Origin: an uncultured Acidimicrobiales bacterium
GTDB lineage: Bacteria > Actinomycetota > Acidimicrobiia > Acidimicrobiales > Ilumatobacteraceae
Assembly: GCA_963738325.1 (NCBI GenBank)
Contig: CAVTWD010000015.1
Coordinates: forward strand, 30,767-94,766
Direction: 5' to 3'
Length of the DNA: 64,000 nucleotides
Shown piece by piece: positions 516 through 30,309 of the stretch. The first letter of the stretch is position 1. Each line of letters opens with the position of its first letter. Under the pieces are notes generated by a model. That model was not told the DNA's origin. It did no database searches and worked only from the letters and a program-made list of their open reading frames with translations. Both the position numbers and the translations under genes were made by a program.

Positions 516-578
516 TCGACAGCCGGTGAACCCTATCGGGGGCTGCGACGGAGCCGCCAGCACCGCGCCCAAACCGTT

Positions 579-1186: not shown

Positions 1187-1209
1187 AGTGGCTCCTGATG
1201 CCCGTGACG

Positions 1210-4950: not shown

Positions 4951-4967
4951 TGCATGAAGGGGGATCC

Positions 4968-7519: not shown

Positions 7520-7558
7520 GCCGGGATCGTAGGCTCGTCTTCCGCCACGACCATCGCG

Positions 7559-8872
7559 ATGACGCTCCACCGACGCAGTCCGGAACCGACCTTCGAGGAG
7601 AGCGAGGAAGCCCTCGCTGAGGGCGATGCCCTCTTCCCCCGGCGCCGGCCAGGGACGGTGCGCTCGGTCCTCGGCCACACCGCCTTCCGCCGCATGTGGG
7701 TTGGGTCGTTCGCGTCCAACGTCGGCACGTGGATGCAGACCGTCGTGCTCGGCGCCTATGCCTACGAGCTCACGGGGTCGAGCAGCTTCGTCGGTCTCGT
7801 GACCTTCGCCCAACTCGGGCCGCTCCTGCTGCTCGGGCTGTTCGGTGGAGTCATCGCCGACGTGTTCGATCGGCGCCGGCTGTTGATCGTGTTGCAGGCC
7901 GAGCAGCTCGTGTTCTCGCTCATCCTGGCGGCCGTCGTGGGTTTGAGCGACCATCCCTCGCAGCTCGCCTTGTTCGCGTGTGTCTTCGCGGTCGGGATCG
8001 GCAACGCGCTGAACCTGCCGGCGTGGAGCGCGGTGCTGCCCAACCTCGTGGGCAAGGAAGACCTGGCGGGAGCGATCTCGCTCAACTCGACGCAGGTGAA
8101 CATGAGCCGCGTTCTCGGCCCTGCCATCGCCGGTGTGGTCTACCCGATCGCCGGGCCGGCGTGGATCTTCGTGGTCAACGCCGCGACCTACCTCTTCGTG
8201 ATCGCCGCGCTCGTGTCGGTCCGCTTCCCCGACGTCGCCCGCGCCACCGGCAAGGTCTGGGAGAACGTCGTCGGCGGCTTCCGCATCTGCCGCGATGACC
8301 CTCTGGTGGGCCGGATCCTGATCACCCTGCCGATCTTCTCGTTCTTCTGCCTGCCGTTCCTCAGCTTGTTCCCCGCCATCGCCGCCACCGCGCTGGGGAT
8401 GGACACCAAGACCTTCGCCTACGGCGCGCTGTACGCGTGCTTCGGCGTGGGGGCGGCGGTCGGGGCGCTGTCGACTGGAACAGTGCTGGCCGCCGTCGAC
8501 AAGCGCCGGCTCACCCGCCTCGGCTTGATCGGCTTCGCCGTGAGCATCGGTGTCTTCGGGCTGCTGCGCCAACCCCTGCCCGCCTATCCCGCCGTGTTCG
8601 TGCTCGGCGCGTTCTACTTCGGGACGACGACGTCGATGATGACGGTGCTGCAGGAGGTGCTCGACGACGATGTGCGAGGGCGGGTGATGGCCCTCTGGTT
8701 CATGGGCTTCGGCGGGACCGTGCCGCTCGGTGGGCTCGCCTTCGGGCCGATCCTCGATGCCACCAACGCAAGCGTGATCCTGGGCGTCGCCGCCGTCGTC
8801 GCGCTGCTGCTGGCGTGGTGGTGTGACCTGCCCGCTCTCTCCACCAGCGTGGTACCCGGGCTCGCCACCTGA
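7559..8872 (+). CDS. MFS transporter (DHA/EntS-like)
   Basis: About 12 TM helices with MFS-like motifs. Divergent from the GT87-like gene. Confidence 0.8.
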   Translation: MTLHRRSPEPTFEESEEALAEGDALFPRRRPGTVRSVLGHTAFRRMWVGSFASNVGTWMQTVVLGAYAYELTGSSSFVGLVTFAQLGPLLLLGLFGGVIADVFDRRRLLIVLQAEQLVFSLILAAVVGLSDHPSQLALFACVFAVGIGNALNLPAWSAVLPNLVGKEDLAGAISLNSTQVNMSRVLGPAIAGVVYPIAGPAWIFVVNAATYLFVIAALVSVRFPDVARATGKVWENVVGGFRICRDDPLVGRILITLPIFSFFCLPFLSLFPAIAATALGMDTKTFAYGALYACFGVGAAVGALSTGTVLAAVDKRRLTRLGLIGFAVSIGVFGLLRQPLPAYPAVFVLGAFYFGTTTSMMTVLQEVLDDDVRGRVMALWFMGFGGTVPLGGLAFGPILDATNASVILGVAAVVALLLAWWCDLPALSTSVVPGLAT

Positions 8873-11106: not shown

Positions 11107-12230
11107 GAGGTGCCAGCGTGGATCGACCGGCAGTCGTTTTCGGCGGGCCGTCCCCCGAACACGACATCAGCGTGCTCACCGGCCTCCAAGCGGCGCGCTG
11201 CCTGGCCGACGCCGACCAGGACCCCCTGGCCGTCTACTGGTCGAAGGCGGGATCGTTCCACGCCGTGCCCGCCGCCCTCGAAGCCAGGGACTTCGTCCAC
11301 GGCGTGCCGCCCAAGGCGGACGGTCTGGAGCTCGTGGCGCAACCCGGCGGAGGATTCGTCGGTGAGCGCGGGCGGTTCGGCAAGCGCGCTCCCCTCGACA
11401 TCGGCGCCGTCGTGAACTGCTGCCACGGCGGCCCAGGCGAGGACGGGACGCTCCAGGCCGCCCTCGATCTGGCCGGCGTGCCCTATACGGGCCCCGGTGC
11501 CGCCGGTGCCGCGCTGGGCATGGACAAGCTGGCCTTCGGCGGGGTCATGGCCGCCGCCGAGATTGCCTGCCTGCCGAGGTTCGCGTTGAGCGAGGACGGC
11601 CCGCAGCCCCCGTTCACCGGGCCGTACATCGTGAAGCCCCGCTTCGGCGGCTCGTCGATCGGCATAGAGATCATCGACGATCTCGCCACCGCACGCGCGT
11701 TGGCGGCCTCCTCGCCCCACTTCCGTGACGGCGCGGTGCTCGAGCCGTACCGGCCAGATGCCGTCGATCTCAACATTTCCGTGCGCACCTGGCCGTCGCT
11801 GACGCTCTCGGCCATCGAGCGGCCGATCCGCCAGGAGGCCTCGGGGCGCATCTACACCTACGCGGAGAAGTACCTCGGTGGCGGCGAGGGTCTGTCGTCG
11901 GCCCCGCGCGAACTGCCCGCCGACATCCCCGACGATCTTGCGGAACGGGTGCGGCGGGTGGCGGTGGCCGTCGCGGCGGTGGCTCTGGTGCGGGGCGCGC
12001 CGCGCATCGACTTCCTCTGGGACGGCCCCGAGCTGTGGGTGAACGAGATCAACACCATCCCGGGCGCGATGGGTTGGTACTTGTGGCACGCCAGCGGGGT
12101 GAGCTTCGCCCAGCTGCTGGCCGACTTGTTGGACGAGGCCAGGCGCGGCCCCGTACGCACCCGCACCACCGAGGGGGCCGATGGCACGGCGTTGCGCGCC
12201 GCTGGCTCGATCGCCGGCAAGCTCGCTTAG
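11103..12230 (+). CDS. ddl: D-alanine--D-alanine ligase
   Basis: ATP-grasp Ddl signature (AVVFGGPSPEHDISVLTG...EINTIPG). The start overlaps the MurF-like stop (GTGA). An alternative GTG lies at 11118. Confidence 0.85.
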   Translation: MRGASVDRPAVVFGGPSPEHDISVLTGLQAARCLADADQDPLAVYWSKAGSFHAVPAALEARDFVHGVPPKADGLELVAQPGGGFVGERGRFGKRAPLDIGAVVNCCHGGPGEDGTLQAALDLAGVPYTGPGAAGAALGMDKLAFGGVMAAAEIACLPRFALSEDGPQPPFTGPYIVKPRFGGSSIGIEIIDDLATARALAASSPHFRDGAVLEPYRPDAVDLNISVRTWPSLTLSAIERPIRQEASGRIYTYAEKYLGGGEGLSSAPRELPADIPDDLAERVRRVAVAVAAVALVRGAPRIDFLWDGPELWVNEINTIPGAMGWYLWHASGVSFAQLLADLLDEARRGPVRTRTTEGADGTALRAAGSIAGKLA

Positions 12231-12239
12231 ACTTTAGGG

Positions 12240-13225
12240 CTTGAGCGGATAGGCGTTTCAGTTGGGGCTCCAGCGGTTTCGCCAGTCGATGAGCTTTGCG
12301 GTGAGTAGTACGGCGACCGCCAGGGTGAATTGGGCGAGTCGGTGGAGTGTTCGCCGGTCGGTGTTGCGGCGGAGTTGACCGAAGTTCGACAGCCACGAGT
12401 TTGTCCGCTCGTTCGGCCAGCGCAGCCCCATGGGAATGTTCGTGGTGCCCTCGCCGGCGTTGCGTTGGCGCTTGGTGGCGAGGCTCGCATCGTCAATCTG
12501 GCGCTCGGCGAGGCGTTGGCGAGTGACGCCACTGTCGTAGCCGCGGTCGAGCCACAACGTGTCGATCTCGGTGAGCAGACAGCGCCCGGCGGCGTCATCG
12601 AGGGTGGGTGCGAGCAGCACCGAGTCGTTGCGGTTGGCACCGTCGATCGTCCAGCCGATGGGCACCCCATGCCGTTCGGAGGCCACGGACCACTTCCAGC
12701 CCAACTTCCCACGATCGGTGGGGTTCGGGCCGGTCCCCTCACCACCGTAGGGAGCGTTGTGCAGCGACCCGTCGAGACTGACCTCGGACAGGTCCAGCCC
12801 GATGATCCGGTCGTAGTCGCCGATCGCTTCCTCTGCGATGGCGGCGAAGACCCCGGCGGCGATCCACTCGTCGCGGCGGTCGCGCACGGTCGTGTCGGAG
12901 ACCTCGCTGCCACACAGCCGCTCGGCGTCTTCCCACGAGCATCCCCTCGCCCACCGCACGAGCATCACCCCAAAGCACGCCCGGTCCGACGCCCGATGGC
13001 GGTGACAGCCGAGCGGATGGGTCACCTGCCGGACTGGGATCAGCGGCTCGACTGCTCGCCAGATCACCTCCACAACTTCGGGATCAAGTGCGCGCATAAT
13101 GGTGAAGACCTCCACTCGGTCGTTGTTCGTGTTCAGCAACCCCGATTCTCTCGGGGCCACCACAACGACCGGTGGATGGTCACCTCGTCGCGAACTACCT
13201 GGTCAAAGGCCATTTCGTCTACCCG
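12240..13225. mobile_element. IS5-family (IS427/IS1031-group-like) insertion sequence; boundaries approximate
   Basis: Single DDE transposase ORF. Imperfect terminal inverted repeats GGCGTTTCAGTTGG (12252) and CCTGGTCAAAGGCC (13198). CTTAG is present on both flanks (12226 and about 13232). Inserted immediately after the ddl stop. Confidence 0.5.
12258..13097 (-). CDS. IS5-family DDE transposase
   Basis: Shows GWKWSVASERHGVPIGW...ANRNDS and an N-terminal HTH (MRALDPEVVEVIWRAVEPLIP). The ORF could extend to 13163. Confidence 0.8.
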   Translation of the reverse strand: MRALDPEVVEVIWRAVEPLIPVRQVTHPLGCHRHRASDRACFGVMLVRWARGCSWEDAERLCGSEVSDTTVRDRRDEWIAAGVFAAIAEEAIGDYDRIIGLDLSEVSLDGSLHNAPYGGEGTGPNPTDRGKLGWKWSVASERHGVPIGWTIDGANRNDSVLLAPTLDDAAGRCLLTEIDTLWLDRGYDSGVTRQRLAERQIDDASLATKRQRNAGEGTTNIPMGLRWPNERTNSWLSNFGQLRRNTDRRTLHRLAQFTLAVAVLLTAKLIDWRNRWSPN

Positions 13226-13322
13226 CGCCGCCTCTTAGGACAAGTCCTGTTACCGTTGCTCAGAGACACGGCATCGTCGGAGTCGGGGCACGCGGGCGAG
13301 GCGGGGAGGCGGGGAGGCGGGG

Positions 13323-14612
13323 ATGTATAGGGCCACTGTGATTGGCATCGTCGCGACCATGACGGCGCTGGCACTGGCAGGATGCGGGAGCAAGGCAGCC
13401 ACCAGCGCGCCAGCAGCCACCAGCGCGCCAGCAGCCAGCACGACAACGGCACCTGCCAGCACGACAACGGCACCTGCCAGCACGACTGCAAGGTCTGCGG
13501 CCGCGCCATCCACGACCACGATGCCCCCGGTCATGAGCGCGTCCTCGGTGGCGCAGTTCGTGACGACCTTCTACAACCAGTATCTGGCCTGCCAGGGAAC
13601 GAACGCTGTTACCTGTTCCAGCAGCGTCGTGAACAAGTACGGCACGCCGAAACTCGACTCGTATTACACACCCGCAGCGGGCTACGAATATGACAGCGAC
13701 CCCATCCTGTGCGCCCAGGACTCCCCGACAGGGGTCCAGGTGTCAGGCGTGACGACGACGCCGAACACCGCTTCGGGAACGGTGAACGAGGAGGGCTTCG
13801 GCTCGGCGAACACGACCACTTTCGTAGTCGTCAACCAATCGGGCACGTTGAAAATCGACACCATCACCTGCAATCCGCCGTTGATGCCAGACAAGCAGCT
13901 CACGGGTGGGGGCGGTACCGGATCCACGGGCGGCTCGGCAACAAGCCTCGACGGCACGTACACGATCTCCCTGCCGCCGGGCGACGACAGCTGCGGCTCC
14001 CCGTCCTTGAGCGCGGAGACCCTCACCGTCAGCGGCACGACGGCGAGCATCACTGCGGTCGGCGGGCAAACCCCATTTCACGGCACAGCAACCACCGCAG
14101 GATCGACGTTCTCGATGCACATCACGAACGGCATCACCGGCCCCGGTGCCATCGTCATCGACCTCACCGGCAGCATCGAGCCGAACGGCGCTCTGTCGGG
14201 TCAGAGTGTGAACGGCGGCGTCTACCCGGGTGGCACGAACGGCTTCGGCTGTAGCTTTCCATTCACCGCCACCCGCACCTCGGCGAAAGCGGGACCACCG
14301 GCGAGCAGCGCGCCCGTCACCACTCCCTCAGCCGGTAGCGCCGCCCCCTGCACCCGAGCCGCGATCACGGCCGCCGCCCGGGCCGCCGCCGGAGCGGACT
14401 TCGACGGCCTGGCCGGCGGCACGGCGGCCTTCGGCTGCTCGGGCCGGTTCGCCTACACGTTCGCCACCGTCGGGTCGGGTAACACCGAGGTCGACGTCAC
14501 GATGCTGTTCATGGCGACCAACGGCACCTGGCAGTCCGCCGACCGGGGCATCTACTGCCAAGACGGCTCGGTACCTCGGGAGATCTATCGGCCCGCGTGC
14601 GAAACCCAATGA
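13323..14612 (+). CDS. lipoprotein of unknown function with an N-terminal Ala/Thr/Ser-Pro low-complexity linker
   Basis: Signal peptide with lipobox LALAGC, tandem ATSAPAA/STTTAPA repeats, and a Cys-containing C-terminal domain. A GGCGGGGA x3 repeat sits immediately upstream of the start. Confidence 0.7.
   Translation: MYRATVIGIVATMTALALAGCGSKAATSAPAATSAPAASTTTAPASTTTAPASTTARSAAAPSTTTMPPVMSASSVAQFVTTFYNQYLACQGTNAVTCSSSVVNKYGTPKLDSYYTPAAGYEYDSDPILCAQDSPTGVQVSGVTTTPNTASGTVNEEGFGSANTTTFVVVNQSGTLKIDTITCNPPLMPDKQLTGGGGTGSTGGSATSLDGTYTISLPPGDDSCGSPSLSAETLTVSGTTASITAVGGQTPFHGTATTAGSTFSMHITNGITGPGAIVIDLTGSIEPNGALSGQSVNGGVYPGGTNGFGCSFPFTATRTSAKAGPPASSAPVTTPSAGSAAPCTRAAITAAARAAAGADFDGLAGGTAAFGCSGRFAYTFATVGSGNTEVDVTMLFMATNGTWQSADRGIYCQDGSVPREIYRPACETQ
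13399..13500. repeat. short tandem direct repeats inside the lipoprotein linker (2 x about 21 bp and 2 x about 21 bp)
   Basis: ccaccagcgcgccagcagc occurs twice and cagcacgacaacggcacctgc occurs twice. Confidence 0.7.
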
Positions 14613-14811
14613 CCGAGGACCCCGTCAAACTCGCCCGGCGACTGGGCGGGTGGTGAGGCCTCGTTTCGTCACGCTCGTCGGATACAGGCCCAACCAAACT
14701 TGATCTGGACGGGATATCCGGCTCTGACGGACTCGTCTCACCGTCGACACCGTAATCAGGGGCGTGGGTTCCGCGGACAGGCCGGGCTGTGGGCAGCAGA
14801 GGGGTGGCCTG

Positions 14812-15057
14812 GTGAGCGACACTTCGGGGCCGGGTTGGTGGCTGGCGTCAGATGGCCAGTGGTGTCCGCCACGATGGGAGTACCGATGGTTCTCGATGGT
14901 GGCCTGGCCCGAAGGCGGGATTTCGGGGTCCGGATCTGAACGGTGCGTTGCATTGCAGGGAACAGTGGAAAATGCGGCCAGCCTCGGGGGGCAGGGATGG
15001 GAGATGGTTAACTTCACGACGCAATTGGTCGAGAACGAACCCGGTTCTGTTAGCTGA
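14812..15057 (+). CDS. small Trp-rich hypothetical protein (about 81 aa), DUF2510-like GWW..DG.W.PP motif
   Basis: GTG start after a GAGGGGTGG SD. Peptide reads VSDTSGPGWWLASDGQWCPPRWEYRWFSMVAWPEG... The stop is followed by the hairpin AAGGGG-accttcc-CCCCTT. Confidence 0.3.
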   Translation: MSDTSGPGWWLASDGQWCPPRWEYRWFSMVAWPEGGISGSGSERCVALQGTVENAASLGGQGWEMVNFTTQLVENEPGSVS

Positions 15058-15065
15058 AGGAGAGA

Positions 15066-15086
15066 AGGGGACCTTCCCCCCTTCGA
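15066..15086 (+). terminator. GC hairpin downstream of the small ORF (putative intrinsic terminator, no U-tail)
   Basis: The arms aagggg and cccctt are complementary around an accttcc loop. Confidence 0.3.
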
Positions 15087-15193
15087 AACCCCCCATCCTC
15101 GCAGCTCCGCTCGGCCGGCCGAGCCGGACCAGCTCCGCACGAATGCCTGCCAGAAGGCACCTTCAGGTCGTCGGTCCGCGAGGCGAACTGGCT

Positions 15194-15799
15194 TCACGGG
15201 CGCAGGGCGGCGTGCACGTACACGAAGAGCTCGCGCCGCAGGCGGCGCAGCGACGCGATTGACGCGTCGAGCCCGACGACTCGTTGCGCTTCCAGCTCCG
15301 TGGCGGCCCCGACCACCGTGGCATAGAGCAGCAGCACCGTGAGGCGGGGATCCGCCTGGCGCACCGTGCCGGCCGCCATCTCGTCGTCGAGGAACGCCCC
15401 CGCCCGGTCCACCAGCGGTTGCAGCCCCTGCTCCAACCGGCCGGCCGGTCCCGCCCCCAGCCGGTTCACCTCGCGCAGCAGCCCGAGTACCGCAGGCCGG
15501 CGCACCCCGAAGCGGAAGACGGCGCCGAGCACCAGCTCGACCCGGGCCAGGCCGTCGCCACCACGGGCCAGAGCGCCCTCTATCGCCTCCGCCAACGCCG
15601 CGGCCACGTGGTCGATCACCGCGTCGAGCAAACTCTCCTTCGAGTCGAACCAGTAGAGGATGGTCTGCTTCGTGATACCGAGCTCGCCCGCCAACGCGTC
15701 GAGCGACGTGGCTTCGTAGCCGCGCGTACCGAAAGCGGAGAGAGCGGCGTCGACGATCCGCCGGGCGGTCTCGGACGGTCGATGGTCTGCCCGGGGCAC
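15194..15799 (-). CDS. TetR/AcrR-family transcriptional regulator
   Basis: N-terminal HTH (ARRIVDAALSAFGTRGYEATSLDALAGELGITKQTILYWFDSKESLL). Divergent from the FAR gene. Confidence 0.85.
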   Translation of the reverse strand: MPRADHRPSETARRIVDAALSAFGTRGYEATSLDALAGELGITKQTILYWFDSKESLLDAVIDHVAAALAEAIEGALARGGDGLARVELVLGAVFRFGVRRPAVLGLLREVNRLGAGPAGRLEQGLQPLVDRAGAFLDDEMAAGTVRQADPRLTVLLLYATVVGAATELEAQRVVGLDASIASLRRLRRELFVYVHAALRP

Positions 15800-15800
15800 T

Positions 15801-15812
15801 TACCATATGGTA
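15801..15812. promoter_or_regulatory. perfect 12-bp palindrome TACCATATGGTA between the divergent TetR and FAR starts (candidate TetR operator)
   Basis: The palindrome lies in the 24-bp divergent intergenic gap. Confidence 0.5.
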
Positions 15813-15823
15813 GACAATCGAGC

Positions 15824-18173
15824 GTGATCGCCGAGACCCTCGCCGGTTCGCGCATCGCCATCACCGGAGGGACGGGGTTCGTGGGGACGGCGCTCGTCGA
15901 GCGACTGCTCCGCGACGTGCCGCGTTGCGAGGTCGTGCTCCTCGTACGCGCCGGCCGCCGCTCCAGCGCCGCGCAGCGGGTGCAGCGCGAGATCCTGAAG
16001 AACGACGCCTTCGACCGGCTGCGTCGGGAGGTCGGCCGGGACGGCTTCGCGGCCCTCGCCGAGCGCCAGGTGCACGTGATCGCGGGCGACGTCGGCACCG
16101 ACGGCCTAGGCCTCGACGACGCCGATCGCGCCATGCTGGCCAGCTGCAGCCGCGTCATCCACTCGGCCGCCACGGTCGCGTTCGACGCGCCCCTCGACGG
16201 TGCCGTCGAGGTCAACCTGCTCGGACCGTCACGCCTCGCGCTCCTCCTCCACGAGCTCGGCGTCAGCCCCCACCTCATCTCGGTGTCGACGTGCTACGTC
16301 GCCGGCAACCGTCGAGGGAAGGCTCCCGAGTCACCGGTGAGTGACGGCCCATTCGATCTGGGAGTGGACTGGCGCAAGGAGGTCGACGCGGCGCGGCGGG
16401 CACGGGCCGACACCGAGGCCGAGAGCCGCCAGCCCGAACGCCTGGCCGAGCTCCACAAGCGGGCGCGGGCCGAGCTGGGCGCGGCCGGTTCGCCGGCGCT
16501 CGCGGCCAAGACCGAGCAGCTGCGCGGGCGCTGGGTGGCCGATCGAATGGTCGAGCTCGGCCGAGCCCGAGCCGTCAGCCTGGGTTGGCCCGATGCCTAC
16601 GCGTACACGAAAGCCCTCGGCGAAGGGGCGCTGCTCGAGAACGCCGGGCCGGTGCCCGTCACGATCGTGCGGCCGTCGATCATCGAGTCATCGCTGGCCG
16701 AGCCGCGACCGGGCTGGATCCGCGGCTTCCGCATGGCCGAGCCGATCATCGTCTCCTATGCCCGAGGCCTGCTGAAGCAGTTCCCCGGCGTGCCGGAAGG
16801 AATCGTCGACGTGATCCCCGTCGACCTCGTCGTCGGCGCCATCTGCGCGGCGGCTGCGCTGGGCCCGGAGTCGGCACCCCCGATCGTGCAGGTGGCATCC
16901 GGCTCCCGCAACCCGCTGAAGTACCGCTTCCTCGTCGACACCGTGCGCCACTGGTTCGGTGAGCATCCGGTGTACGACAGCATCGGTCAGCCCATCGCGG
17001 TCGCCGACTTCGACTACTCCGCTCGCCACGAGGTCAAGGGCCAGCTCGAGCGGGCCAAGGGAATGATGTCGCGCGCCGAGAAGGTCCTCCACGCGTTGCC
17101 GTTGCGGGGCACGCAGGCCGCCTTCGCGGCCCGACTCGAGGAGCGGCGCAGCGAGGTGGAGCGGGCCCTGTCCTACGTCGAGCTGTACGGCAGCTACGCG
17201 GAGTGCGAGGCCGTCTACTCCGTCGACCAGCTGCTCGCGATGCAAGACGAGCTCAGTGCCGAGGATCTCGTTGCGTTCTCCTTCGACCCCGCCGCCATCG
17301 ACTGGGCGCACTACATCCGCGACGTCCACCTCCCGAGCGTCATCGAGCACGCCCGCGTGAAGACAACACCCACGCGCGGCCGCGCCGACCATCGCCGCGA
17401 TCGGCTGCGGGCCCAGGTCCTGTCACCGGAGCGTCACGTGGCCGCCTTCGACCTCGAGAACACGTTGATCGCCTCGAACGTCGTCGAGAGCTACTCGTGG
17501 TTGGCCACCCGACGCCTCCCCACGCAGGACCGGGTCCGCCTTGCCCTCAAGACGCTGGCCGAGGCCCCCGGGCTGCTCGCCTTGGACCGCCGCGACCGCG
17601 GCGACTTCCTCCGGGCGTTCTACCGACGCTACGAGGGCGCCCCGGTCGCCCAGATCGACGAGGACGCCACCGAGCTGTTCAGCCAACTCATCCTGGCCAA
17701 GAGCTTCCCCGCCGCCATCCGTCGAGTGCGCGAGCATCGCGCCGCCGGGCATCGCACCGTGTTGATCACCGGCGCGCTCGACTTCGCCGTCCGTTCCCTC
17801 CAACCGCTGTTCGACGAGATCATCGCCGCGCGACCTGAGCGTCCGTGACGACGGGACCTACTCGGGCGAGCTGACCGACGTGTCCCCCACGGGCGAGACG
17901 CGTGCGCAACTCCTCGCCGAGTACTGCGAAGCCGAGGGCCTGCGCTTGGACGAGTCGGTCGCGTATGCCGATTCGACGTCCGATCTGCCCCTGCTCGAGG
18001 CCGTGGGCTTTCCGGTGGCCGTGAACCCCGAGACCCGCTTGGCCACCCTTGCCCGGAAGCGGGGGTGGCTCGTGGAGGACTGGCGGAAGCCGCCCGGCTC
18101 CTCAGGGCCCCGGTTGCCGATCGGACCGGCCTGGCGCGCGCCGCGGGTCACGGAGCTGCGGGGCGCCCGATGA
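15824..18173 (+). pseudogene. fatty acyl-CoA reductase (thioester-reductase/NAD-binding) fused to a C-terminal HAD-IB hydrolase domain; -1 frameshift near 17830
   Basis: N-terminal region has ITGGTGFVG...YAYTK, an FAR/TE-reductase fold. The C-terminal part has HAD motif FDLENTLI and ...ADSTSDLPLLEAVGFPVAVNP. The HAD tail continues in another frame (17880..18173). Confidence 0.7.
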
Positions 18174-19355
18174 AAGCGCTTCGCTTCGAGCGCAGCATGG
18201 CCCGCTTCGCCGCGGCGCGTGTCGCCGGAGCCCTGCGACCGGGAGGCGGCGCCCTCGTCGGCCCGCTCGAGCTCGCCGATGTGGATCCACCCGAGCGCCC
18301 AGGGCCGGGCTGGGTCCGACTGCGCCCGCGACTCTCCGGCATCTGCGGCTCGGATCTCTCCACCATTGACGGCGCCGCCAGCCGCTACTTCTCCCCCATC
18401 GTCAGCTTTCCCTTCGTCCCGGGACACGAGGTCGTGGCCGACACCGACGACGACGAGCGCGGTCGTGCTCGAACCGGTGCTCGGTTGCGTGGCCCGTGGT
18501 CTCCATCCGGTGTGTCCCGCGTGTGCGGCCGGTCACCTCGGGAACTGTGAGCGCTTGGCCTTCGGTGACATCTCCCCCGGCCTGCAGACGGGCTTCTGCT
18601 GCGACACGGGCGGCGGCTGGGGCACGTTCATGGTCGCGCACGACAGCCAGCTGCACCGGGTGGCCGACGACATGACCGACGAGGCCGCCGTGATGATCGA
18701 GCCCGCCGCCTGCGCAGTGCACGCCGCGCTGAGCGGCGGCGTTCGCGACGGCGACACCGTGGTCGTACTAGGCGCAGGGACCTTGGGCTTGTTGACGGTG
18801 GCCGCCCTTCGGGCCTTCACCGGCGTCGGCACCCTCGTGGTGGGGGCCCGGTACGCCCATCAGCGGGGTTTCGCTGACCAGTTCGGGGCGGACCTCGTGA
18901 AAGAGCCGGACAAGCTCGGGCGGCTCGTGCGGCGCATGAGCGCGTCAATGGCATACGGCAACCAGCTGACCGGCGGGGCCGAGGTCGTCGTCGACTGCGT
19001 GGGCACGAGCGAGTCGATCGCGCAGTGCCTGACGCTCGTGAAGCCGCGTGGGCGGGTCGTGCTGGTCGGCATGCCGGGCTCGGTACGCCTCGACCTCACG
19101 ACGCTCTGGCACCGTGAGACCGAGCTCGCCGGTGCCTACGCCTACGGCACCGAGACCCTCGCCGACGGCTCGCGGCCGCGGACGTTCGAGCTCGCCTTCG
19201 AGCTGGTGCGGCGGGCCGGTCTCGACTGCCTGGTGTCGGCCACCTATCACCTGGCCGACTACCGGGAAGCGATCGAGCACGCGGCCACGGCCGGTCGCCG
19301 CGGTGCAGTCAAGATCGCCTTTGACCTCCGCCCTGAGAAGGAGCGAAACCGATGA
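18170..19355 (+). pseudogene. zinc-dependent alcohol dehydrogenase (MDR family) with a +1 frameshift near 18467
   Basis: Carries GICGSDL and GHEVV in the first frame and the Rossmann-fold remainder in the second. The start overlaps the upstream stop (ATGA). Confidence 0.7.
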
Positions 19356-19581
19356 GCCGGGCGCGCGTCACGGCCCAGCGTGGGGCAGGGGCCCCACGCT
19401 CGGGAGGAGGCTGGGGTTGGGGCCCCAGCCGGGCCGACCAACAAGGAGCGAAACCGATGAGCCGGGCGCGCGTCACGGCCCGGCGTGGGGCAGGGGCCCC
19501 ACGCTCGGGAGGAGGCTGGGGTGGGGGCCCCAGCCGGGCCGACCAACACGGAGCGAAACCGATGAAGGAGGGCGCGCGCTG
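19338..19581. repeat. 105-bp tandem direct repeat (2 full units plus a partial third), each with an internal 9-bp-stem hairpin
   Basis: Each unit begins aaggagcgaaaccgATGagccgggcgcgcgtcacggcc... and is repeated at 19338, 19443 and 19548 (period 105). The hairpin is agcgtgggg-cagggg-ccccacgct. Confidence 0.85.
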
Positions 19582-19582
19582 A
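19352..19582 (+). CDS. upstream ORF created by the tandem repeat (35-aa peptide repeated twice, then MKEGAR), coupled to the downstream gene
   Basis: Each repeat carries an AAGGAG SD 7 nt before an ATG. The period of 105 is 35 codons, so the frame is kept. The stop overlaps the LarA-like ATG (TGATG). Confidence 0.25.
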   Translation: MSRARVTAQRGAGAPRSGGGWGWGPSRADQQGAKPMSRARVTARRGAGAPRSGGGWGGGPSRADQHGAKPMKEGAR

Positions 19583-21168
19583 TGCCACGGCCGGGTTTCG
19601 TCCTCGAGGTGGACCGCTCCACGCCGCCGTCACTCTTCTGGCACGGGGAGGGCTTTCGCCTCGAGCAGCTACCACCGGGGCGGTCACGAGTCGTCTACGG
19701 GCCCGAGCCGCTCGAACCCCTCGACGACATCGACGGCGCCATCCGGCACGCGCTCCACCATCCACTCGACCACGACCCTCTGCCCTCGCTCCTCTTTCCC
19801 GGCATGCGGCTGACCATCGCCTTCGATGACATCAGCCTGCCGCTGCCGCCGATGCGGCGCCCCGACATCCGCCAGCGGGTGATCGAAGCCGTGCTCGACC
19901 TCGCCGCCGCGGCCGGCGTGGATGACGTCCACATCATCGCCGCCCTCGCCCTTCATCGTCGGATGACCGAAGCAGAGCTGCGCCATGCCGTCGGGGATCG
20001 TGTCTACGACACGTTCGCGCCACGCGGGCTCCTCTACAACCACGACGCCGAGGATCCCGACGGCATGACCGAGCTGGGCTGGACGGCCCACAACGAGCTC
20101 GTCGAGATCAACCGGCGGGCCGCGGAATCGGACCTGCTCGTCTACGTGAACATCAACCTGGTCGCCATGGACGGAGGCTGGAAGTCGACCGCCACCGGCC
20201 TGGCGAGCTACCGCAGCCTCCGGTACCACCACAACGTCCGCACCATGCAGCACAGCCGGAGCTTCATGGACCAGGAACGGTCCGAGCTCCATACGTCGAA
20301 CCGGCGCATGGGGAAGGTGATCCGCAACGCCGGGGTGAAGGTCTTCCAGATCGAGACGACCCTGAACACCGACACGTTCCCGTCCCCCTTCGAGTTCCTG
20401 GCCAAGAGAGAGTGGGAGTGGTCGGCGAAGGACCGGGGTCTCTACCTCGCCAGCTCGGCCTCTCTGAGGCGCTTGCCCAGCCGTCTGAAGCGCGACATCT
20501 TCCACGGCATCCGCTCGCCTCATCAGATGACGAGTGTCCAAGCCGGCGACGTGGACGCCGTTCATCGGATGACGACGGCCAATGTGTACCGCCAGCAGCT
20601 CGTGGCCGTGGAGGGCCAGACGGACATCCTCACCATGGGGATCCCCTTCGTCTGCCCGTACAACGTCAACTCGATCATGAACCCGATCCTCGTGATGTGC
20701 ACGGGGCTCGGCTACTACTTCAACCTCTACCGCGGCCGCCCCCTCGTCCGTGAGGGCGGCGTCGTGATCATGACCCACCCCACCCCGTGGGAATTCCATC
20801 CCGTCCATCATCCGAGCTACATCGACTTCTTCGAGCAGGTGCTGGCGGAGACGACCGACCCCGCGGAGATCGAGCAGCGTTTCGAGAAGTCCTTCGCCGA
20901 CGACGAGTGGTACCGACACCTCTACCGCACCTCGTACGCCTACCACGGCGTGCACCCCTTCTACATGTGGTACTGGGGAGCGCACGCGCTGCAGCACGTC
21001 GGACGGGTGATCGTGGTCGGCGGTAAACCGAAGACCGTTCGACGGTTGGGGTTCGTGCCGGCGTCGACGCTCGACGACGCCCTCGAGCTGGCCGGTGACG
21101 TCGTCGGCCGCCAGCCCACGATCACGCATCTGCACTTGCCGCCGCTGCTGCTGGCGGACGTGAGTTGA
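19582..21168 (+). CDS. LarA-like (DUF2088) lactate-racemase-family protein
   Basis: About 529 aa. Has a GGWKS motif resembling the LarA lysine that tethers its cofactor. Domain order is family-consistent. No larB/larC/larE nearby. Confidence 0.55.
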   Translation: MPRPGFVLEVDRSTPPSLFWHGEGFRLEQLPPGRSRVVYGPEPLEPLDDIDGAIRHALHHPLDHDPLPSLLFPGMRLTIAFDDISLPLPPMRRPDIRQRVIEAVLDLAAAAGVDDVHIIAALALHRRMTEAELRHAVGDRVYDTFAPRGLLYNHDAEDPDGMTELGWTAHNELVEINRRAAESDLLVYVNINLVAMDGGWKSTATGLASYRSLRYHHNVRTMQHSRSFMDQERSELHTSNRRMGKVIRNAGVKVFQIETTLNTDTFPSPFEFLAKREWEWSAKDRGLYLASSASLRRLPSRLKRDIFHGIRSPHQMTSVQAGDVDAVHRMTTANVYRQQLVAVEGQTDILTMGIPFVCPYNVNSIMNPILVMCTGLGYYFNLYRGRPLVREGGVVIMTHPTPWEFHPVHHPSYIDFFEQVLAETTDPAEIEQRFEKSFADDEWYRHLYRTSYAYHGVHPFYMWYWGAHALQHVGRVIVVGGKPKTVRRLGFVPASTLDDALELAGDVVGRQPTITHLHLPPLLLADVS

Positions 21169-21178
21169 GGATGCCGCC

Positions 21179-22201
21179 GTGACCGGAGCGGCTCCGTTGA
21201 AGGCGAAGCATCTCGCCGACCGCGCCGTCGGGTCGGCCCGGCGCACCCGGATCCGCGTGGGCCGCGTCACCACCGCTTTCGGGTTCCCGTGGCGGGCGCC
21301 GACCGTGCCCCGCGGCGTCGAGGTGATACGAGAGCCACGGAAGGTCGGTGCAGACTTCGACACGGACTGGGCTCGCAGACCCCCGGCCCGGCTGGCGCGC
21401 GCCGCCATCGTGGAGGGTCCTCTGCGCCTTGCCGTGAAGGCCATCGCCGCCCCTGAGATCCAAGGCCTCGACCGGCTGGCCGACCTCCGGCGACAACACG
21501 ACCGCGGCGGCGATGCTCGTCCCGTCATCTTCGCAGCGAACCATGTGAGCCATCTCGACGCGCCGATGATGATCACGTCGATTCCCGAACCGTGGCGTCA
21601 CCGCCTGATCGTCGCCGCCGCGGCGGACTACTTCTTCGCCACCCGGGTCAAGGGGACGGCCAGCGCGCTGGCCCTCGGCGCCATCCCGATCGATCGCTCG
21701 CGCGTCAACCGCCGTTCGGCCGACCTGGCGTCGTCACTCATGGGCGACGGTTGGAGCCTGTTGATCTTCCCGGAAGGGGGCCGCTCGCCCGACGGTTGGG
21801 GCCAGCCTTTCCGCGGCGGGGCCGCCTTCCTGGCCGTGCGCACCGGGGTCGCGGTCGTGCCCGTGCACCTCGACGGCACGGGGTCCATCCTCGGCAAGGG
21901 GATGAAGCGGCCCAAGCCGGGTCGCACCATCGTGACCTTCGGCGCGCCGCTGCGGCCTGAGGACGGCGAGGATGCTCGGCGGCTCGGTGACCGGATCGAG
22001 CGGGCGGTGGCCGAGCTGGCCGACGAAGCGGCGACGGACTGGTACTCGGCCCGCTTGCGTGCTGGCCGGGCCGAGACCCCGTCGCTCGGGGGTCCGGAGG
22101 CCACCGGCTGGCGGCGCGCCTGGGCGCTCGGCGAGCGGCGAGCCCGTGGTCGGGCCGGCCAACGCCGCCGGCAGCGCCGCCGTTGGCCCAAGCTCGGCTA
22201 G
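21179..22201 (+). CDS. lysophospholipid (1-acyl-sn-glycerol-3-phosphate) acyltransferase, PlsC family
   Basis: Carries the NHVSHLD (HX4D) and FPEGGRS motifs. Confidence 0.75.
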   Translation: MTGAAPLKAKHLADRAVGSARRTRIRVGRVTTAFGFPWRAPTVPRGVEVIREPRKVGADFDTDWARRPPARLARAAIVEGPLRLAVKAIAAPEIQGLDRLADLRRQHDRGGDARPVIFAANHVSHLDAPMMITSIPEPWRHRLIVAAAADYFFATRVKGTASALALGAIPIDRSRVNRRSADLASSLMGDGWSLLIFPEGGRSPDGWGQPFRGGAAFLAVRTGVAVVPVHLDGTGSILGKGMKRPKPGRTIVTFGAPLRPEDGEDARRLGDRIERAVAELADEAATDWYSARLRAGRAETPSLGGPEATGWRRAWALGERRARGRAGQRRRQRRRWPKLG

Positions 22202-22235
22202 CGAAGGGGGTCTCCTTCTCCGCTTCGCTACTCGG

Positions 22236-22820
22236 CTAGCCCGGGACCTTGAGGAGCTGCCCGGGCTTCAGGCGCACGGTGGCGAGGTCGAGGTTGTTGA
22301 GATCCAGCAGCGTCTGCAACGAGATGCCGAACTTGTTGGCGATGCCCGCCGGGGAGTCGCCGTAGACCACGACGTAGGCCTTCTCACCGGTCGGCAGCAC
22401 CGTGGTGGGCGGGAGGACGCGGGGGATCTTCAGCTTCTGCCCGGGGTGGATGCTCGGCCGGCTCGGATCGATGCCATTAGCCGCGTAAAGGGCGTCCAAG
22501 GCGACGTTGTAGCGGGCCGCGATCGAGGCCGGCGCGTCGCCGAGCTTCACGGTGTAGATCGCCTTCACACGAGGGTCGGCGGGCGCCGCGTTCAGCGCCG
22601 CGCCCCCGGCAATCGTGGTGGTGGTGGCGGCGGCCGCGATCGTGGCCGACGTCGGTCGGGGCGGCGACACGGGGATCGTCCGGAAGGCCGTGCTCGGGAT
22701 CGTGCTGGTCGGCGCGGTCGACGCCGACGAGCCCAGGTCGCAGCTGGCCAGGGTCAGCAGCCCGAGCGTGAGGGAGCCGGCGACGACGGCCGCGGCGGTG
22801 GATCGGCGGGCGACCAGCAT
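22236..22820 (-). CDS. LysM-domain lipoprotein (two LysM repeats)
   Basis: Signal peptide with lipobox LTLASC, a Thr/Pro linker, and two LysM motifs (YTVKLGDAPASIAARYNV...; YVVVYGDSPAGIANKFGISL...). Confidence 0.75.
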   Translation of the reverse strand: MLVARRSTAAAVVAGSLTLGLLTLASCDLGSSASTAPTSTIPSTAFRTIPVSPPRPTSATIAAAATTTTIAGGAALNAAPADPRVKAIYTVKLGDAPASIAARYNVALDALYAANGIDPSRPSIHPGQKLKIPRVLPPTTVLPTGEKAYVVVYGDSPAGIANKFGISLQTLLDLNNLDLATVRLKPGQLLKVPG

Positions 22821-23089
22821 GGCGACCCTGCAGCCTAGGAGCCGTTGCCGCGACGGCGGCCGCGCTCCCCTCCCGAGGCCGGGCTCCCCGCTCGGGGCCG
22901 GGCTCCCCGCTCGGGGCCGGGCTCCCCGGATCGGTCGCTCACCGGCGGAACTTGAACCTGAGGGTGCTGTCCACGGCCCTTCCCGGTTCAACTTCAGCAG
23001 CAGGCGGGCTACTCGGCGGCAACGATGGTGAACCGCAAGGAGAGCGGGCACGTACAACAGTCGTGCGCGTCGACGACCGGGGAGGCACG

Positions 23090-25627: not shown

Positions 25628-28600
25628 TCAGCCATGGCTCGCCGCCATGACCAGCTCCAGCGTCTTCTTCTCGGCCAGTCCCTCCCGTTCGGCCCGAGCC
25701 ATGACCTCGACCACCCGCTTGTAGTCCTTCGGCATGACCTTGCGGAACGAGGGCCCGGCGACGGACCACGCGTCGATCAACCGCGCTCCCAGCGTCGATC
25801 CCGTGTAGGTGACGTGGGCACGGATCGCGTCGTGCACGAAGGCGAGGTCCTCATCGCTGAGGGCCTCGAGCTCGACCATCTCCGGGTTGACCAGCGCCGG
25901 AAAGCGACCCTCCGGGTCGTACACGTAAGCGATGCCGCCCGACATTCCGGCCCCGAAGTTCCGCCCGGTCTCGCCGAGCACCACGACCCGACCACCCGTC
26001 ATGTACTCGCACCCGTGGTCACCCACACCTTCGACCACCGCGAGGGCACCGGAGTTCCGAACGCAGAAGCGCTCCCCCACGACGCCGCGCAGGTAGAGCT
26101 CCCCGCCGGTGGCTCCGTACGCGATGACGTTGCCGGCGATCACGTTCTCCTCTGCCGCGAACCGGGCCGCCCGATCCGGAAACACCGCGACGCGCCCCCC
26201 TGACAGGCCCTTGGCCAGGTAGTCGTTCGCGTCGCCTTCCAGCAGGAGGGTGAGGCCGCGAGGCAGGAAGGCGCCGAAGCTCTGGCCCGCCGAGCCCCGC
26301 AGGTGCAGCTCGACCGTGCCGTCCGGCAGCCCCTCGGGCCCCCAACGGCGGGTGACCTCGGATCCGAGCATGGTGCCGACCGTGCGGTTGATGTTCCGCA
26401 CCCGGAGCTCGGCCCGCACCTGGTGGCCGTCTTCGAGGGCGAGCTCGCACAAACGGATGAGATCTCGGTCGAGGGCACGATCGAGCCCGTGATCCTGGCG
26501 GCGGCTGTTGAGCATCGTCTGCTCGTAGGGGTTCTCGGGCACCTGCAGGATGGGACGCAGGTCGAGCCCGCGCGCCTTCCAGTGGTCGACGGCGGCGCGG
26601 GTGTCGAGCAATTCGGCGTGACCGACGGCCTCGGCCATCGAGCGGAAGCCGAGCTCGGCCAGCAGCTCGCGCACCTCTTCGGCGATGTACTCGAAGAACG
26701 TCACCACGAACTCGGGCTGGCCGGTGAAACGACGGCGCAGCTCCGGGTTCTGGGTCGCGATGCCGACCGGGCAGGTGTCCAAGTGGCAGACGCGCATCAT
26801 CACGCATCCCGACACGACGAGGGGGGCCGTGGCGAAGCCGAACTCCTCGGCCCCGAGGAGCGCGGCGATCACGACGTCACGCCCTGTCTTCATCTGCCCG
26901 TCGACCTGCACGACGATCCGGTCGCGCAGCCCGTTCAGCAGCAAGGTCTGCTGTGTCTCGGCCAGGCCGAGCTCCCAGGGCGCCCCGGCGTGCTTCAGCG
27001 AGGTGAGCGGCGAGGCCCCGGTCCCGCCGTCGTGGCCCGAGATGAGCACCACGTCGGCATGCGCCTTCGACACGCCGGCGGCCACGGTGCCGACCCCGAC
27101 CTCGGCGACCAGCTTCACGTGGATGCGGGCCCGTGGGTTGGAGTTCTTCAGATCGTGGATGAGCTGCTTCAGGTCCTCGATCGAGTAGATGTCGTGGTGG
27201 GGCGGTGGGCTGATGAGCCCGACGCCCGGGGTCGAGTACCGGGTCTTCGCGATCCACGGGTAGACCTTGTGGCCCGGCAGCTGGCCCCCCTCGCCCGGCT
27301 TGGCGCCTTGGGCCATCTTGATCTGGAGGTCGTCCGCGCTGACGAGGTACTCGCTCGTGACGCCGAAGCGGGCCGAGGCCACCTGTTTGATGGCCGAGCG
27401 CTTCGAGTCGCCGTTCGCCAGCGGCACGTAGCGCTCCGGGTCCTCGCCGCCTTCACCGGTGTTGCTCTTGCCGCCGAGGCGGTTCATGGCGATGGCGAGC
27501 GTCTCGTGGGCTTCGGCCGAGATCGAGCCGTAGCTCATGGCGCCCGTGGCGAAGCGGCGCACGATGGCGCTGACCGGCTCGACCTCCTCGATGGGCACGG
27601 GCGGCCGCTCACCGAAGCGGAGCTCGAACAGCCCCCGTAGCGTGGCCAGCCGTTGCGACTGGTCGTTGACCGCGCTCGTGTACTGCTTGAAGACGTCGTA
27701 TCGGCGGGCGCGGGTCGCGTGCTGGAGGCGGAAGACCGTCTCGGGGTTGAACAGGTGGTAGTCGCCCTCCCGGCGCCATTGGTACTCGCCACCGAGCTCG
27801 AGCCGGCGATGAGCCCGCCCCTCCGGCCGCTCGGGGTGGGCCGAACGATGGCGGGCCGCCACTTCGGCCGCGAGCTCGTCGAGGCCGACCCCGCCGAGGC
27901 GGCTGACCGTGCCCGTGAAGTACTCCTCCACGAGCTCCGCTCCCAACCCGATCGCTTCGAACACCTGGGCACCGGTGTAAGAGGCGACCGTCGAGATGCC
28001 CATCTTCGACATGACCTTCAGCACGCCCTTGCCCGCCGCCTTGATGTAGCGGCGCACCGCGGTGGCCGGGTCGAGGCCACCCATGCCGTGGAGGCCCTCG
28101 TTGATCATGTCCTCGATCGACTCGAAGGCGAGGTACGGGTTGATGGCCCCGGCCCCGTAGCCGACGAGCAGCGCCATGTGGTGCACTTCGCGGGCGTCGC
28201 CGGCCTCGATGACGAGCCCGACCTTGGTGCGCGTCTTCTCGCGGATGAGATGGTGGTGCACGGCCGCCGTCAACAGCAGCGACGGGATGGGCGCGTAGAC
28301 CTCGTCGGCGTTGCGGTCGGAGAGCACGATGATGCGGGCCCCGTTGCTGATGGCCTGGCTGACCTGCGAGCGCACGGCGTCGAGAGCGCGGCGCAACGCC
28401 AACCCGCCCCCGGCCACCCGGTAGAGCCCGCTGATGATGGCGGCCGCGAACCCGGGCATGTCGCCGTCGGCGTTGATGTGGATCAGCTTGGCCAGCTCGT
28501 CGTTGTCGATCACCGGGAACGGCAGTTGTACCTGCCGGCACGATGCGGGACCGGGATGGAGCAGGTTGCCCTCCGGCCCGATCGTCGAGCCGAGCGCGGT

Positions 28601-30199: not shown

Positions 30200-30309
30200 C
30201 GTCCTCGTTCCACGACGTCGGCTTGCGGCTGCTGTGGACGCAGGGGACGACGCTGGCCGGCTGCGCAACCTCCTACTCTAGCCGCCGGCCCCCATCCCGG
30301 GTGGTCTTT

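Follow-up and report, generated by a model that had tools for sequence, protein, structure and literature searches.

The elb operon (elbA-E) of Myxococcus xanthus is an ether-lipid cluster in which ElbD is the key enzyme (Lorenzen et al. 2014, as reviewed in PMC9131029). elbD is needed for both alkyl and vinyl ether lipids, and the steps that lead to the ether bond are unknown; among the other products, ElbB is a HAD-like phosphohydrolase, ElbE and ElbA belong to the NAD-dependent epimerase/dehydratase family, and ElbC is of unknown function (PMC9131029). The eukaryotic, peroxisomal route to ether lipids comprises FAR1, GNPAT, AGPS, alkyl-dihydroxyacetone phosphate (alkyl-DHAP) reductase, AGPAT, and a phosphatase (PMC9131029). 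Here we compare with these systems an operon and its divergent TetR-family regulator gene, found in a 64,000-nucleotide stretch of DNA from an uncultured Acidimicrobiales bacterium of the family Ilumatobacteraceae (contig CAVTWD010000015.1 of assembly GCA_963738325.1, positions 30,767 to 94,766 of the forward strand; hereafter “the window,” meaning this whole stretch, whose numbering is used throughout).

The unit is a four-gene operon encoding a fusion of a fatty acyl-CoA reductase (FAR) with a HAD-IB phosphatase (FAR::HAD), a polyol-type zinc-dependent alcohol dehydrogenase (ADH), a homologue of LarA, and a PlsC-type acyltransferase, with the TetR gene divergent from it. We consider it probable that this locus is an elb-like lipid biosynthesis operon under TetR control and that the frameshifts that interrupt two of its genes are artefactual. 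As judged from the comparative analysis below, it is best read as a rearranged Acidimicrobiia version of the Myxococcus elb cluster; any particular chemical step is assigned with much less confidence than this overall reading.

Organization and conservation of the operon

The original prediction, made from the sequence of the window and its open reading frames (ORFs), had a TetR gene divergent from a FAR/HAD gene. Both genes lie at the predicted coordinates, and the fusion protein is 782 aa long once a frameshift is repaired. The features of the locus are as follows (P and L numbers, here and below, are our handles for proteins and loci, respectively).

15194-15799, minus strand: TetR-family regulator gene (201 aa, GTG start; PF00440 TetR_N helix-turn-helix [HTH] domain, residues 15-61, E = 3e-13)
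15801-15812, no strand: putative TetR operator, the perfect palindrome TACCATATGGTA, conserved upstream of FAR::HAD
15808-15816, plus strand: extended −10-like box TGGTAGACA, 7 nt 5′ of the FAR::HAD GTG, part of a putative leaderless promoter
15824-18173, plus strand: FAR::HAD-IB fusion gene (782 aa after removal of an extra base; NAD_binding_4, HAD PF12710)
17834-17835, plus strand: single-base insertion in a CC run that splits FAR::HAD, a probable assembly error
18170-19355, plus strand: zinc-dependent medium-chain dehydrogenase gene of the polyol-dehydrogenase type (394 aa after repair; ADH_N and ADH_zinc_N)
18461-18462, plus strand: single-base insertion in a GG run that splits the ADH gene, a probable assembly error
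19338-19578, plus strand: 105-bp tandem repeat, 2.3 copies, between the ADH and LarA-like genes (Tandem Repeats Finder period 105)
19582-21168, plus strand: LarA homologue of the LarAH14/15/16 family (528 aa; Lar_N, E = 1e-35; NF052592)
21179-22201, plus strand: PlsC-type acyltransferase, the last gene of the operon (340 aa, start codon uncertain; PF01553, E = 2e-19)

The FAR::HAD stop codon TGA (18171-18173) overlaps the ADH start codon ATG (18170-18172) in the sequence ATGA at 18170-18173, an overlap that the original prediction had also described. The G+C content is ≈70% throughout the window, and the acyltransferase gene is followed by a LysM gene in the opposite orientation.

Related loci were obtained from 80 species-level genomes, mostly of Ilumatobacteraceae and including that of the cultured Ilumatobacter nonamiensis YM16-303 (L057). 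The order TetR (minus strand), FAR::HAD, ADH, LarA homologue, and acyltransferase is kept in essentially all of these 80 loci that have enough flanking sequence, and it recurs in metagenome loci whose FAR::HAD proteins are 38-46% identical to that of the window (L088, L090, L091, L093, L095, L096, and L110). The ADH gene is missing from six otherwise intact operons that keep the remaining three genes (L068, L071, L072, L074, L079, and L107), and we therefore take FAR::HAD, the LarA homologue, and the acyltransferase to be the core. By these sequence comparisons, the putatively TetR-controlled operon is evidently conserved across Acidimicrobiia. The conserved unit contains no transporter, kinase, or β-oxidation gene, and the gene content of the window includes no WS/DGAT gene within or beside the operon.

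The FAR::HAD fusion

The repaired protein carries both predicted domains on one chain: a FAR domain encoded by ≈15824-17353, which matches Pfam NAD_binding_4 with E = 1e-56, and a complete HAD domain (PF12710; ≈17432-18080), which scores 108.7 bits against TIGR01490 (HAD-IB; cut-off 98.3). The closest solved structures give the same division, with 7eoz_A, a fatty acyl-CoA reductase, aligning to residues 2-510 (E = 7e-60) and 3fvv_A matching the HAD-IB portion (E = 2e-12). Alcohol-forming bacterial FARs such as 7eoz_A (532 aa) consist of NAD_binding_4 and Sterile domains; the window protein resembles them over those 2-510 residues but differs in its additional C-terminal HAD-IB domain of ≈250 residues and in a Sterile domain (PF03015) match that is weak, at 26.6 bits against the Pfam cut-off of 35.4. 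Three distant fusions (P0139, P0155, and P0163) do pass that cut-off.

The sequence motifs expected of both halves are present and invariant across orthologues. In the FAR domain these are the nucleotide-binding motif TGxTGFxG (TGGTGFVG, within ITGGTGFVG) and the catalytic YxxxK motif (YAYTK); in the HAD domain they are motifs I (FDLENT), II (LITGA), and IV (ADSTSD). Motif I (≈17450-17467) keeps the nucleophilic Asp and has Glu rather than Asp at +2, the general acid/base position, in all 85 close loci. We considered whether this Glu marks an inactive, clade-specific domain and rejected the idea, as Asp and Glu alternate at +2 across the wider ElbB-like family (YDLEGT in L111, YDLDGT in L166, and FDVDGT in L085).

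The fusion had been predicted to be uncommon, and this does not hold. Searching 5.8 billion proteins yielded more than 5,000 matches, and the best 120, which we looked at, are all 772-813 aa long with both domains, apart from the truncated product of the window itself; where named, they are called “HAD-IB family hydrolase/phosphatase” or “fatty acyl-CoA reductase,” and they come from metagenome-assembled genomes (MAGs) of Acidimicrobiia/Acidimicrobiales. All 119 closest relatives are thus FAR::HAD fusions, as is the protein at each of the genome loci, where the fusion is one uninterrupted match in 80 of 80. Among 1.84 billion cluster representatives, at least 13 separate 50%-identity clusters contain full-length fusions, with identities as low as 36-47%; the Pfam architecture was confirmed in the four of these distant fusions that were scanned. 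A separate HAD gene, which would have argued against a genuine fusion, appears only in far more distant clusters, and FAR::HAD is the standard architecture in Acidimicrobiia. Literature searches combining “HAD-IB” with “fatty acyl-CoA reductase” found nothing, and those for the combination of FAR, HAD, lactate racemase, and acyltransferase found only unrelated wax-ester papers.

Relationship to elb clusters

The closest relatives of the FAR domain outside the fusions are proteins of ≈1400-1500 aa with the domain order FAR/AMP-binding/PP-binding/Acyltransferase (P0187 and P0200), 34-43% identical to the window protein over ≈510 residues. We refer to these as ElbD-like because that order is the ElbD layout. 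One further relative, P0164, combines FAR, AMP-binding, and HAD domains in 1223 aa. In a Planctomycetota MAG (L085), a 220-aa HAD gene that matches TIGR01490 lies 2 nt 3′ of an ElbD-like gene, and its product aligns with the HAD domain of the window over its full length (35% identity, E = 7e-36). The separate acyltransferase of the window is likewise related to the acyltransferase domain of an ElbD-like protein (P0187; 36% identity, E = 4e-26).

Two loci extend this likeness to the LarA homologue. In a Myxococcales MAG (L166:7275-15211) and in a contig whose closest relatives are Pyrinomonadaceae (L111:3229-11048), genes for a HAD protein (220 aa), a Lar_N protein (≈535 aa), an ElbD-like protein (≈1500 aa), and an epimerase follow one another in the order elbB-C-D-E. 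Pyrinomonadaceae belong to Acidobacteria subdivision 4, a group discussed in the ether-lipid literature. The two Lar_N proteins score 848 (L166) and 804 (L111) bits against NF052592, above its cut-off, and are 49% and 46% identical, respectively, to the LarA homologue of the window over the full length. Intermediate forms also occur, in which HAD, LarAH, and FAR are encoded by three separate genes (L114 and L117). From these clusters a LarA-type identity can be proposed for ElbC of M. xanthus itself. The literature we searched contains nothing that pairs “ether lipid” with “lactate racemase,” the original 2014 elb paper lying outside that search, and the link between the LarAH14/15/16 family and elb-type clusters may so far be unreported.

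The first four ElbD-like genes that we inspected (L081-L084) have no HAD or LarA neighbor; the link is seen only in L085, L111, and L166. In three of the four (L081, L083, and L084, positions 1-6725 of each, on contigs of 0.17-6.3 Mb), the standalone ElbD-like gene adjoins a coenzyme F420 biosynthesis block with CofC, CofD, F420 ligase, CofH-like radical SAM enzymes, and an F420 oxidoreductase. In the fourth, a gene for a single protein with Lar_N and DUF362 domains (L082:16944-18236) lies ≈5.5 kb 3′ of the standalone ElbD-like gene on the opposite strand, maybe by coincidence.

The window operon thus shares with elb a FAR domain akin to that of ElbD, a HAD domain akin to ElbB, a LarA homologue akin to the product of the elbC-position gene, and an acyltransferase akin to the ElbD acyltransferase domain. 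It differs in that its FAR is fused to HAD rather than to the synthetase-carrier-acyltransferase (ACS-ACP-AT) portion, its acyltransferase is a separate protein, it has a divergent TetR gene with a conserved operator, and its host belongs to a Gram-positive Acidimicrobiia lineage without reported ether lipids. Compared with the peroxisomal pathway, the operon encodes the same kinds of activity, namely a fatty acyl reductase, an acyltransferase of the glycerol-phosphate/DHAP type, a phosphatase, and an oxidoreductase possibly acting at C2, but it has a LarA-type enzyme and no homologue of AGPS, the FAD-dependent alkyl-DHAP synthase.

The same FAR domain could instead serve a storage-lipid pathway, making fatty alcohol for wax esters through WS/DGAT enzymes encoded elsewhere, with the remaining operon genes as accessories. 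The extended match to 7eoz_A (over 500 residues), the name “alcohol-forming fatty acyl-CoA reductase” given to many homologues by the Joint Genome Institute (JGI), and the several WS/DGAT genes of Ilumatobacter and Microthrix genomes (PMC10351704) are all compatible with such a role. We nonetheless think it unlikely, as the operon neither contains nor adjoins a WS/DGAT gene, and the invariant partners of the reductase, an HAD-IB phosphatase, a LarA homologue, and a PlsC-type acyltransferase, are the elb set and not that of wax-ester loci.

The LarA homologue, the acyltransferase, and the dehydrogenase

The LarA homologue scores 890.7 bits against NF052592 (“LarAH14/15/16”; cut-off 740) and is conserved in every locus with enough flanking sequence; the PlsC-type acyltransferase 3′ of it is conserved as well. 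The LarA superfamily comprises nickel-pincer-nucleotide racemases and epimerases. LarAHs of groups 14 and 15 lack the second catalytic His (PMC12611868). Aligned with the single-histidine LarAH 9q2u, the window protein has the first of the two catalytic His residues (in ALHRR), the Lys that anchors the cofactor (GGWK), and the His that ligates nickel (HH); Asn occupies the position of the second catalytic His (residue numbering of PMC12611868). It resembles the LarAH14/15/16 members of the LarA superfamily and the single-histidine LarAHs (structures 9q2u and 9q3j; PMC12611868) in family score and in these residues, but departs from the usual setting of that superfamily in lying in a lipid operon rather than in a carbohydrate or organic-acid context.

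The repaired ADH has GroES-like and Rossmann domains and the catalytic-zinc-ligand motifs GICGSD, PGHE, and IEPAAC. Its best NCBIfam and PDB matches are scyllo-inosose, idonate, (L-)threonine, xylitol, and sorbitol dehydrogenases, the PDB matches being xylitol, sorbitol, and threonine dehydrogenases; the NCBIfam scores all fall short of the equivalog thresholds. By sequence likeness, reducing a fatty aldehyde is a less fitting task for such a polyol-type enzyme than acting on a secondary alcohol in a small, polar backbone. The original prediction had proposed a reductase, phosphatase-like, and ADH chain for fatty aldehyde or alcohol metabolism. A role in lipids derived from a fatty aldehyde or alcohol is supported, whereas a simple passage from reductase to ADH on a fatty aldehyde is not, because the ADH is of the polyol type and is absent from several intact operons.

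The ADH and the LarA homologue also bear on whether the operon is a catabolic or salvage unit for breaking down or remodeling a lipid, polyol, or hydroxy acid taken from outside, in which TetR would sense the substrate, as repressors of many catabolic operons do. The resemblance of the ADH to polyol, sorbitol, and threonine dehydrogenases points that way, and characterized LarA-family members isomerize 2-hydroxy acids and sugar acids (PMC11770544). The LarAH14 from Frankia, however, was inactive on all hydroxy acids tested (PMC7583248), and the gene set is linked to ElbD, which M. xanthus needs for ether-lipid synthesis (PMC9131029). The operon combines a thioester reductase with a PlsC-type acyltransferase, both biosynthetic enzymes, and the conserved unit has none of the transporter, kinase, or β-oxidation genes that a degradative operon might carry. 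A divergent TetR gene is typical of inducible operons in general and so agrees with a catabolic role, which we consider very unlikely overall. An elb-like biosynthetic operon remains the preferred reading.

Two subtypes of ADH occur among the orthologues in the region corresponding to 18470-18550. In the window type, four Cys residues form a cluster like that of structural zinc sites (C...CPACAAGHLGNC), and in the other subtype the Cys residues are replaced (e.g., GHAARG...PPFDGAAPG in L001 and L010). The tandem repeat that begins at the 3′ end of the ADH gene (19338-19578) has 95% matches between copies; each unit starts with the ADH 3′ end (AAGGAGCGAAACCGATGA), contains two strong GC-rich hairpins, and folds at −63 kcal/mol (z = −3.75). 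No other related locus, and no other part of the window, has the 105-bp repeat. Candidate explanations are insertion of a hairpin element that duplicated its target, an attenuator or stabilizer within the operon, and an artefact of assembly.

The TetR gene, its putative operator, and proposed divergent promoters

In the TetR/TetA and QacR paradigm, a TetR-family repressor gene is divergent from its target gene, and a palindromic operator lies between the two. The window conforms to it in the N-terminal HTH of the regulator, the divergent arrangement, and a single palindrome lying over both putative promoters, and departs from it in the short 12-bp core of the operator, in the seemingly leaderless state of both genes, and in the downstream position of TetR at some distant loci. 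The starts of the two genes, the TetR GTG at 15799 and the FAR::HAD GTG at 15824, are 24 bp apart (15800-15823), and this gap holds the palindrome TACCATATGGTA (15801-15812), which occurs once in the window; gap and palindrome were both part of the original prediction. The TetR start codon has no alternative because a TAA stop codon lies immediately 5′ of the GTG. The regulator reaches no NCBIfam equivalog cut-off, and we found for it neither a close characterized homologue nor a predicted ligand; nearly all related loci whose upstream flank is available encode a divergent TetR orthologue (42-59% identity).

Palindromes of this kind are not rare in the window, which has 31 perfect 12-bp palindromes against ≈41 expected from shuffled sequences (only two of them are ≥50% A+T), and the significance of the operator therefore lies in its position and conservation. 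The degenerate form TACCnnnnGGTA is also unique in the window (expected 0.04), and 67 of 71 genome loci have it in the interval that separates TetR from FAR::HAD. The related loci, 1.07 Mb in total, contain it 79 times, and all but three of these occurrences (76/79) sit 10-85 nt 5′ of a FAR::HAD start. It is also kept 5′ of distant fusions (L088, L091, L108, and L110), and this although the surrounding intergenic sequence has diverged and the TetR proteins are 42-59% identical. In many orthologues the consensus extends to ≈20 bp (yTmTy-TACCAAwTGGTA-rAsrA). Comparative evidence from close and distant loci thus strongly supports the predicted control by TetR through this putative operator.

The upstream regions share a second element. 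When 59 unique orthologous upstream regions are aligned on the start codon, a TGnTA[AGT]A[ACT][ACT] box begins 12-16 nt before it in 51, which can be summarized as an extended −10-like box, TGnTAGAmm, 7-8 nt before the FAR::HAD start codon. None of the boxed upstream regions has room for a Shine-Dalgarno sequence or ribosome-binding site after the box, which suggests that the FAR::HAD mRNA may be leaderless. In the window, the right arm of the palindrome forms part of the −10-like box (TGGTAGACA), and on the minus strand TACCAT (15812-15807) lies 7 nt 5′ of the TetR GTG. From this geometry we infer two overlapping, divergent, leaderless promoters, both of which would be covered by one TetR dimer. 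A sigma-70 scan gave no canonical promoter match, terminator-like matches do not exceed shuffle expectation, and Rfam has no match at 12000-23000.

The architecture of operator and promoter varies among related loci, with at least three spacing classes to the start codon (10-12, 23-26, and ≈37 nt). Two full TACCnnnnGGTA palindromes ≈12-13 bp apart occur in L022, L035, and L079; an extra TAGAC half-site lies ≈8 nt to the left of the palindrome in other loci (operator variants of this sort include L012, L016, L023, and similar loci), and many loci have a second TGnTAGAAC box ≈10 nt to its right. In two of the distant loci, L091 (TetR at 7364-7927) and L110 (TetR at 14012-14575), the TetR gene lies 3′ of the acyltransferase on the same strand, and TACCnnnnGGTA is still 5′ of FAR::HAD.

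Frameshifts in FAR::HAD and ADH

Each of the two enzyme genes carries one +1 frameshift, as predicted. The FAR::HAD frame ends at a TGA (17846-17848), and the protein resumes one frame over at 17835-18173; taking one base out of the CC run at 17834/17835 gives ...IIAARLSVRDDGTYSGE..., which is gap-free against all orthologues. Taking the extra G out of the GG run at 18461/18462 repairs the ADH to ...DTDDDERVVLEPVLGC..., which is gap-free against orthologues such as ...DTDDGQRVVLEPVLGC.... The repaired enzymes have no further lesions, no in-frame stops, and no loss of an invariant residue.

We surveyed the window for similar lesions by translating the long ORFs of 80 related loci and searching them against the window with tblastn for single orthologues that span two adjacent frames; a plot of third-codon-position G+C (GC3) proved too coarse for frameshift calls. 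Over the third or so of the window that could be compared in this way, at least five further ortholog-supported frame switches were found, at ≈31400, ≈34350, ≈38280, ≈38498, and ≈60482, in genes whose labels are read from the aligned peptides rather than from a family search. The switch at ≈34350 lies in an aconitase-like gene and is supported by more than 16 loci, with 74% and 67% identity on either side; those at ≈38280 and ≈38498 lie 220 nt apart in one carboxyltransferase-like gene; those at ≈31400 and ≈60482 fall in a GntR-like and a P450-like gene, respectively. Two other candidates, at ≈25630 and ≈27135, were rejected since gltB (25628-30268) is a single intact ORF of 1546 aa with all its domains, and the signals are off-frame ORFs or errors in other loci. 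In total, the comparable portion holds seven frame breaks, one of them in a housekeeping-looking gene, which points to indel-prone sequencing rather than to loss of FAR::HAD and ADH in particular.

The competing view is that both genes are pseudogenes and the pathway is being lost, and indeed two of the four operon genes are hit, and the public record holds a truncated product of 674 aa (P0001, 100% identity). An error, if real, must accordingly sit in the deposited assembly, as that record is the truncated product. Decay of the pathway is nevertheless highly improbable in our estimation: each lesion is one extra base in a two-base run, the reading frames are otherwise free of stops and keep their invariant residues, comparable lesions lie at five or more other sites including the aconitase-like gene, and the operator and the remaining operon genes are intact. 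Programmed frameshifting was dismissed as well, since the lesions lie in different genes, the same type of lesion occurs in unrelated genes, and no slippery sequence was apparent by eye (no formal scan was made). Both frameshifts are most likely assembly or sequencing indel errors and not pseudogenization, and any biological meaning for them is unsupported in an assembly with so many others. Single-base indels are frequent in the assembly of this window, and its frameshifts should not be taken as biology.

Proposed pathway

On the preferred reading, the evolutionary correspondence with elb would be as follows: the ElbD reductase domain and the ElbB phosphatase have been joined in one chain, the acyltransferase domain of ElbD has become a separate protein, the elbC-position gene (the LarA homologue) has been kept, the ACS-carrier module is gone, and a zinc-dependent dehydrogenase stands where ElbE would be. 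A TetR dimer on the palindrome would block both leaderless promoters until released by a lipid-like ligand. The FAR domain would draw on the acyl thioesters of the cell and reduce one to a fatty aldehyde or alcohol, dispensing with a dedicated synthetase and carrier protein; the PlsC-type enzyme would acylate an acceptor of the glycerol-phosphate type, and the HAD-IB domain would remove phosphate from a backbone of the same type. Hydride transfers at the secondary alcohol of the backbone could be the task of the LarA homologue, together with the polyol-type dehydrogenase in those operons that have one, and the product would be an alkyl (ether) glycerolipid or a related glycerolipid derived from fatty alcohol.

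Several observations weigh against this reading. The window operon contains neither AMP-binding nor PP-binding domains, that is, the ACS-ACP module is absent, and it has no short-chain dehydrogenase/reductase (SDR) gene, a zinc-dependent enzyme of the medium-chain dehydrogenase/reductase (MDR) type taking the place of the SDRs ElbE and ElbA; the pathway may differ from elb because this module and an ElbE-type SDR are missing. ElbB and ElbC of M. xanthus enter the comparison only through their counterparts in elb-like clusters of two MAGs (Myxococcales and Planctomycetota) and one Acidobacteria-like contig. The literature that we searched holds nothing linking Acidimicrobiia to ether lipids, and Pontiella has elbD homologues, yet no ether lipids were detected in it (PMC11868695). 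The truncated FAR::HAD product in the public record belongs on the same side.

A more specific and far more speculative proposal concerns the LarA homologue. LarAH14/15/16 enzymes with a single catalytic His may be the unrecognized “ElbC” component of elb-type clusters, including the minimal Acidimicrobiia operon, and could catalyze the missing redox-neutral step of AGPS-independent ether-lipid synthesis; we regard this as a long shot. One option would be that the hydroxyl at C2 of an acyl-glycerol-phosphate is oxidized transiently, the C1 ester meanwhile being exchanged for or converted to an alkyl ether, and that the hydride is then returned. If LarAH were indeed the ElbC component, the operon, which has no ACS-ACP module, would represent a minimal enzyme set of FAR, HAD, LarAH, and acyltransferase, with or without ADH.

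Flanking sequence

Beyond the 3′ end of the TetR gene, the ≈580 bp that separate it from a lipoprotein gene (14613-15193) contain no convincing gene; an ORF at 14764-15057 has no Pfam match, and 14613-15193 has no Rfam match. The lipoprotein gene itself (13323-14612) encodes a lipobox, LAGC, and Thr/Ala/Pro repeats.

Implications

The operon touches two open questions, that of how bacteria make ether lipids under aerobic conditions through ElbD without AGPS (PMC9131029) and that of the substrates of the nickel-pincer enzymes LarAH14-16 (PMC7583248 and PMC12611868), and it joins them, in that one set of four activities (reductase, HAD-IB phosphatase, LarA homologue, and PlsC-type acyltransferase) recurs as a group in Myxococcales, Acidobacteria, and Acidimicrobiia. 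The Acidimicrobiia version, stripped of the synthetase/carrier module and apparently governed by a simple TetR switch, would offer a compact and testable set of enzymes, for which the cultured carrier I. nonamiensis and a defined putative operator for induction provide practical handles. For the organisms themselves, these findings suggest that the abundant Acidimicrobiia of aquatic and sediment habitats may have been overlooked as producers of alkyl glycerol ether biomarkers.

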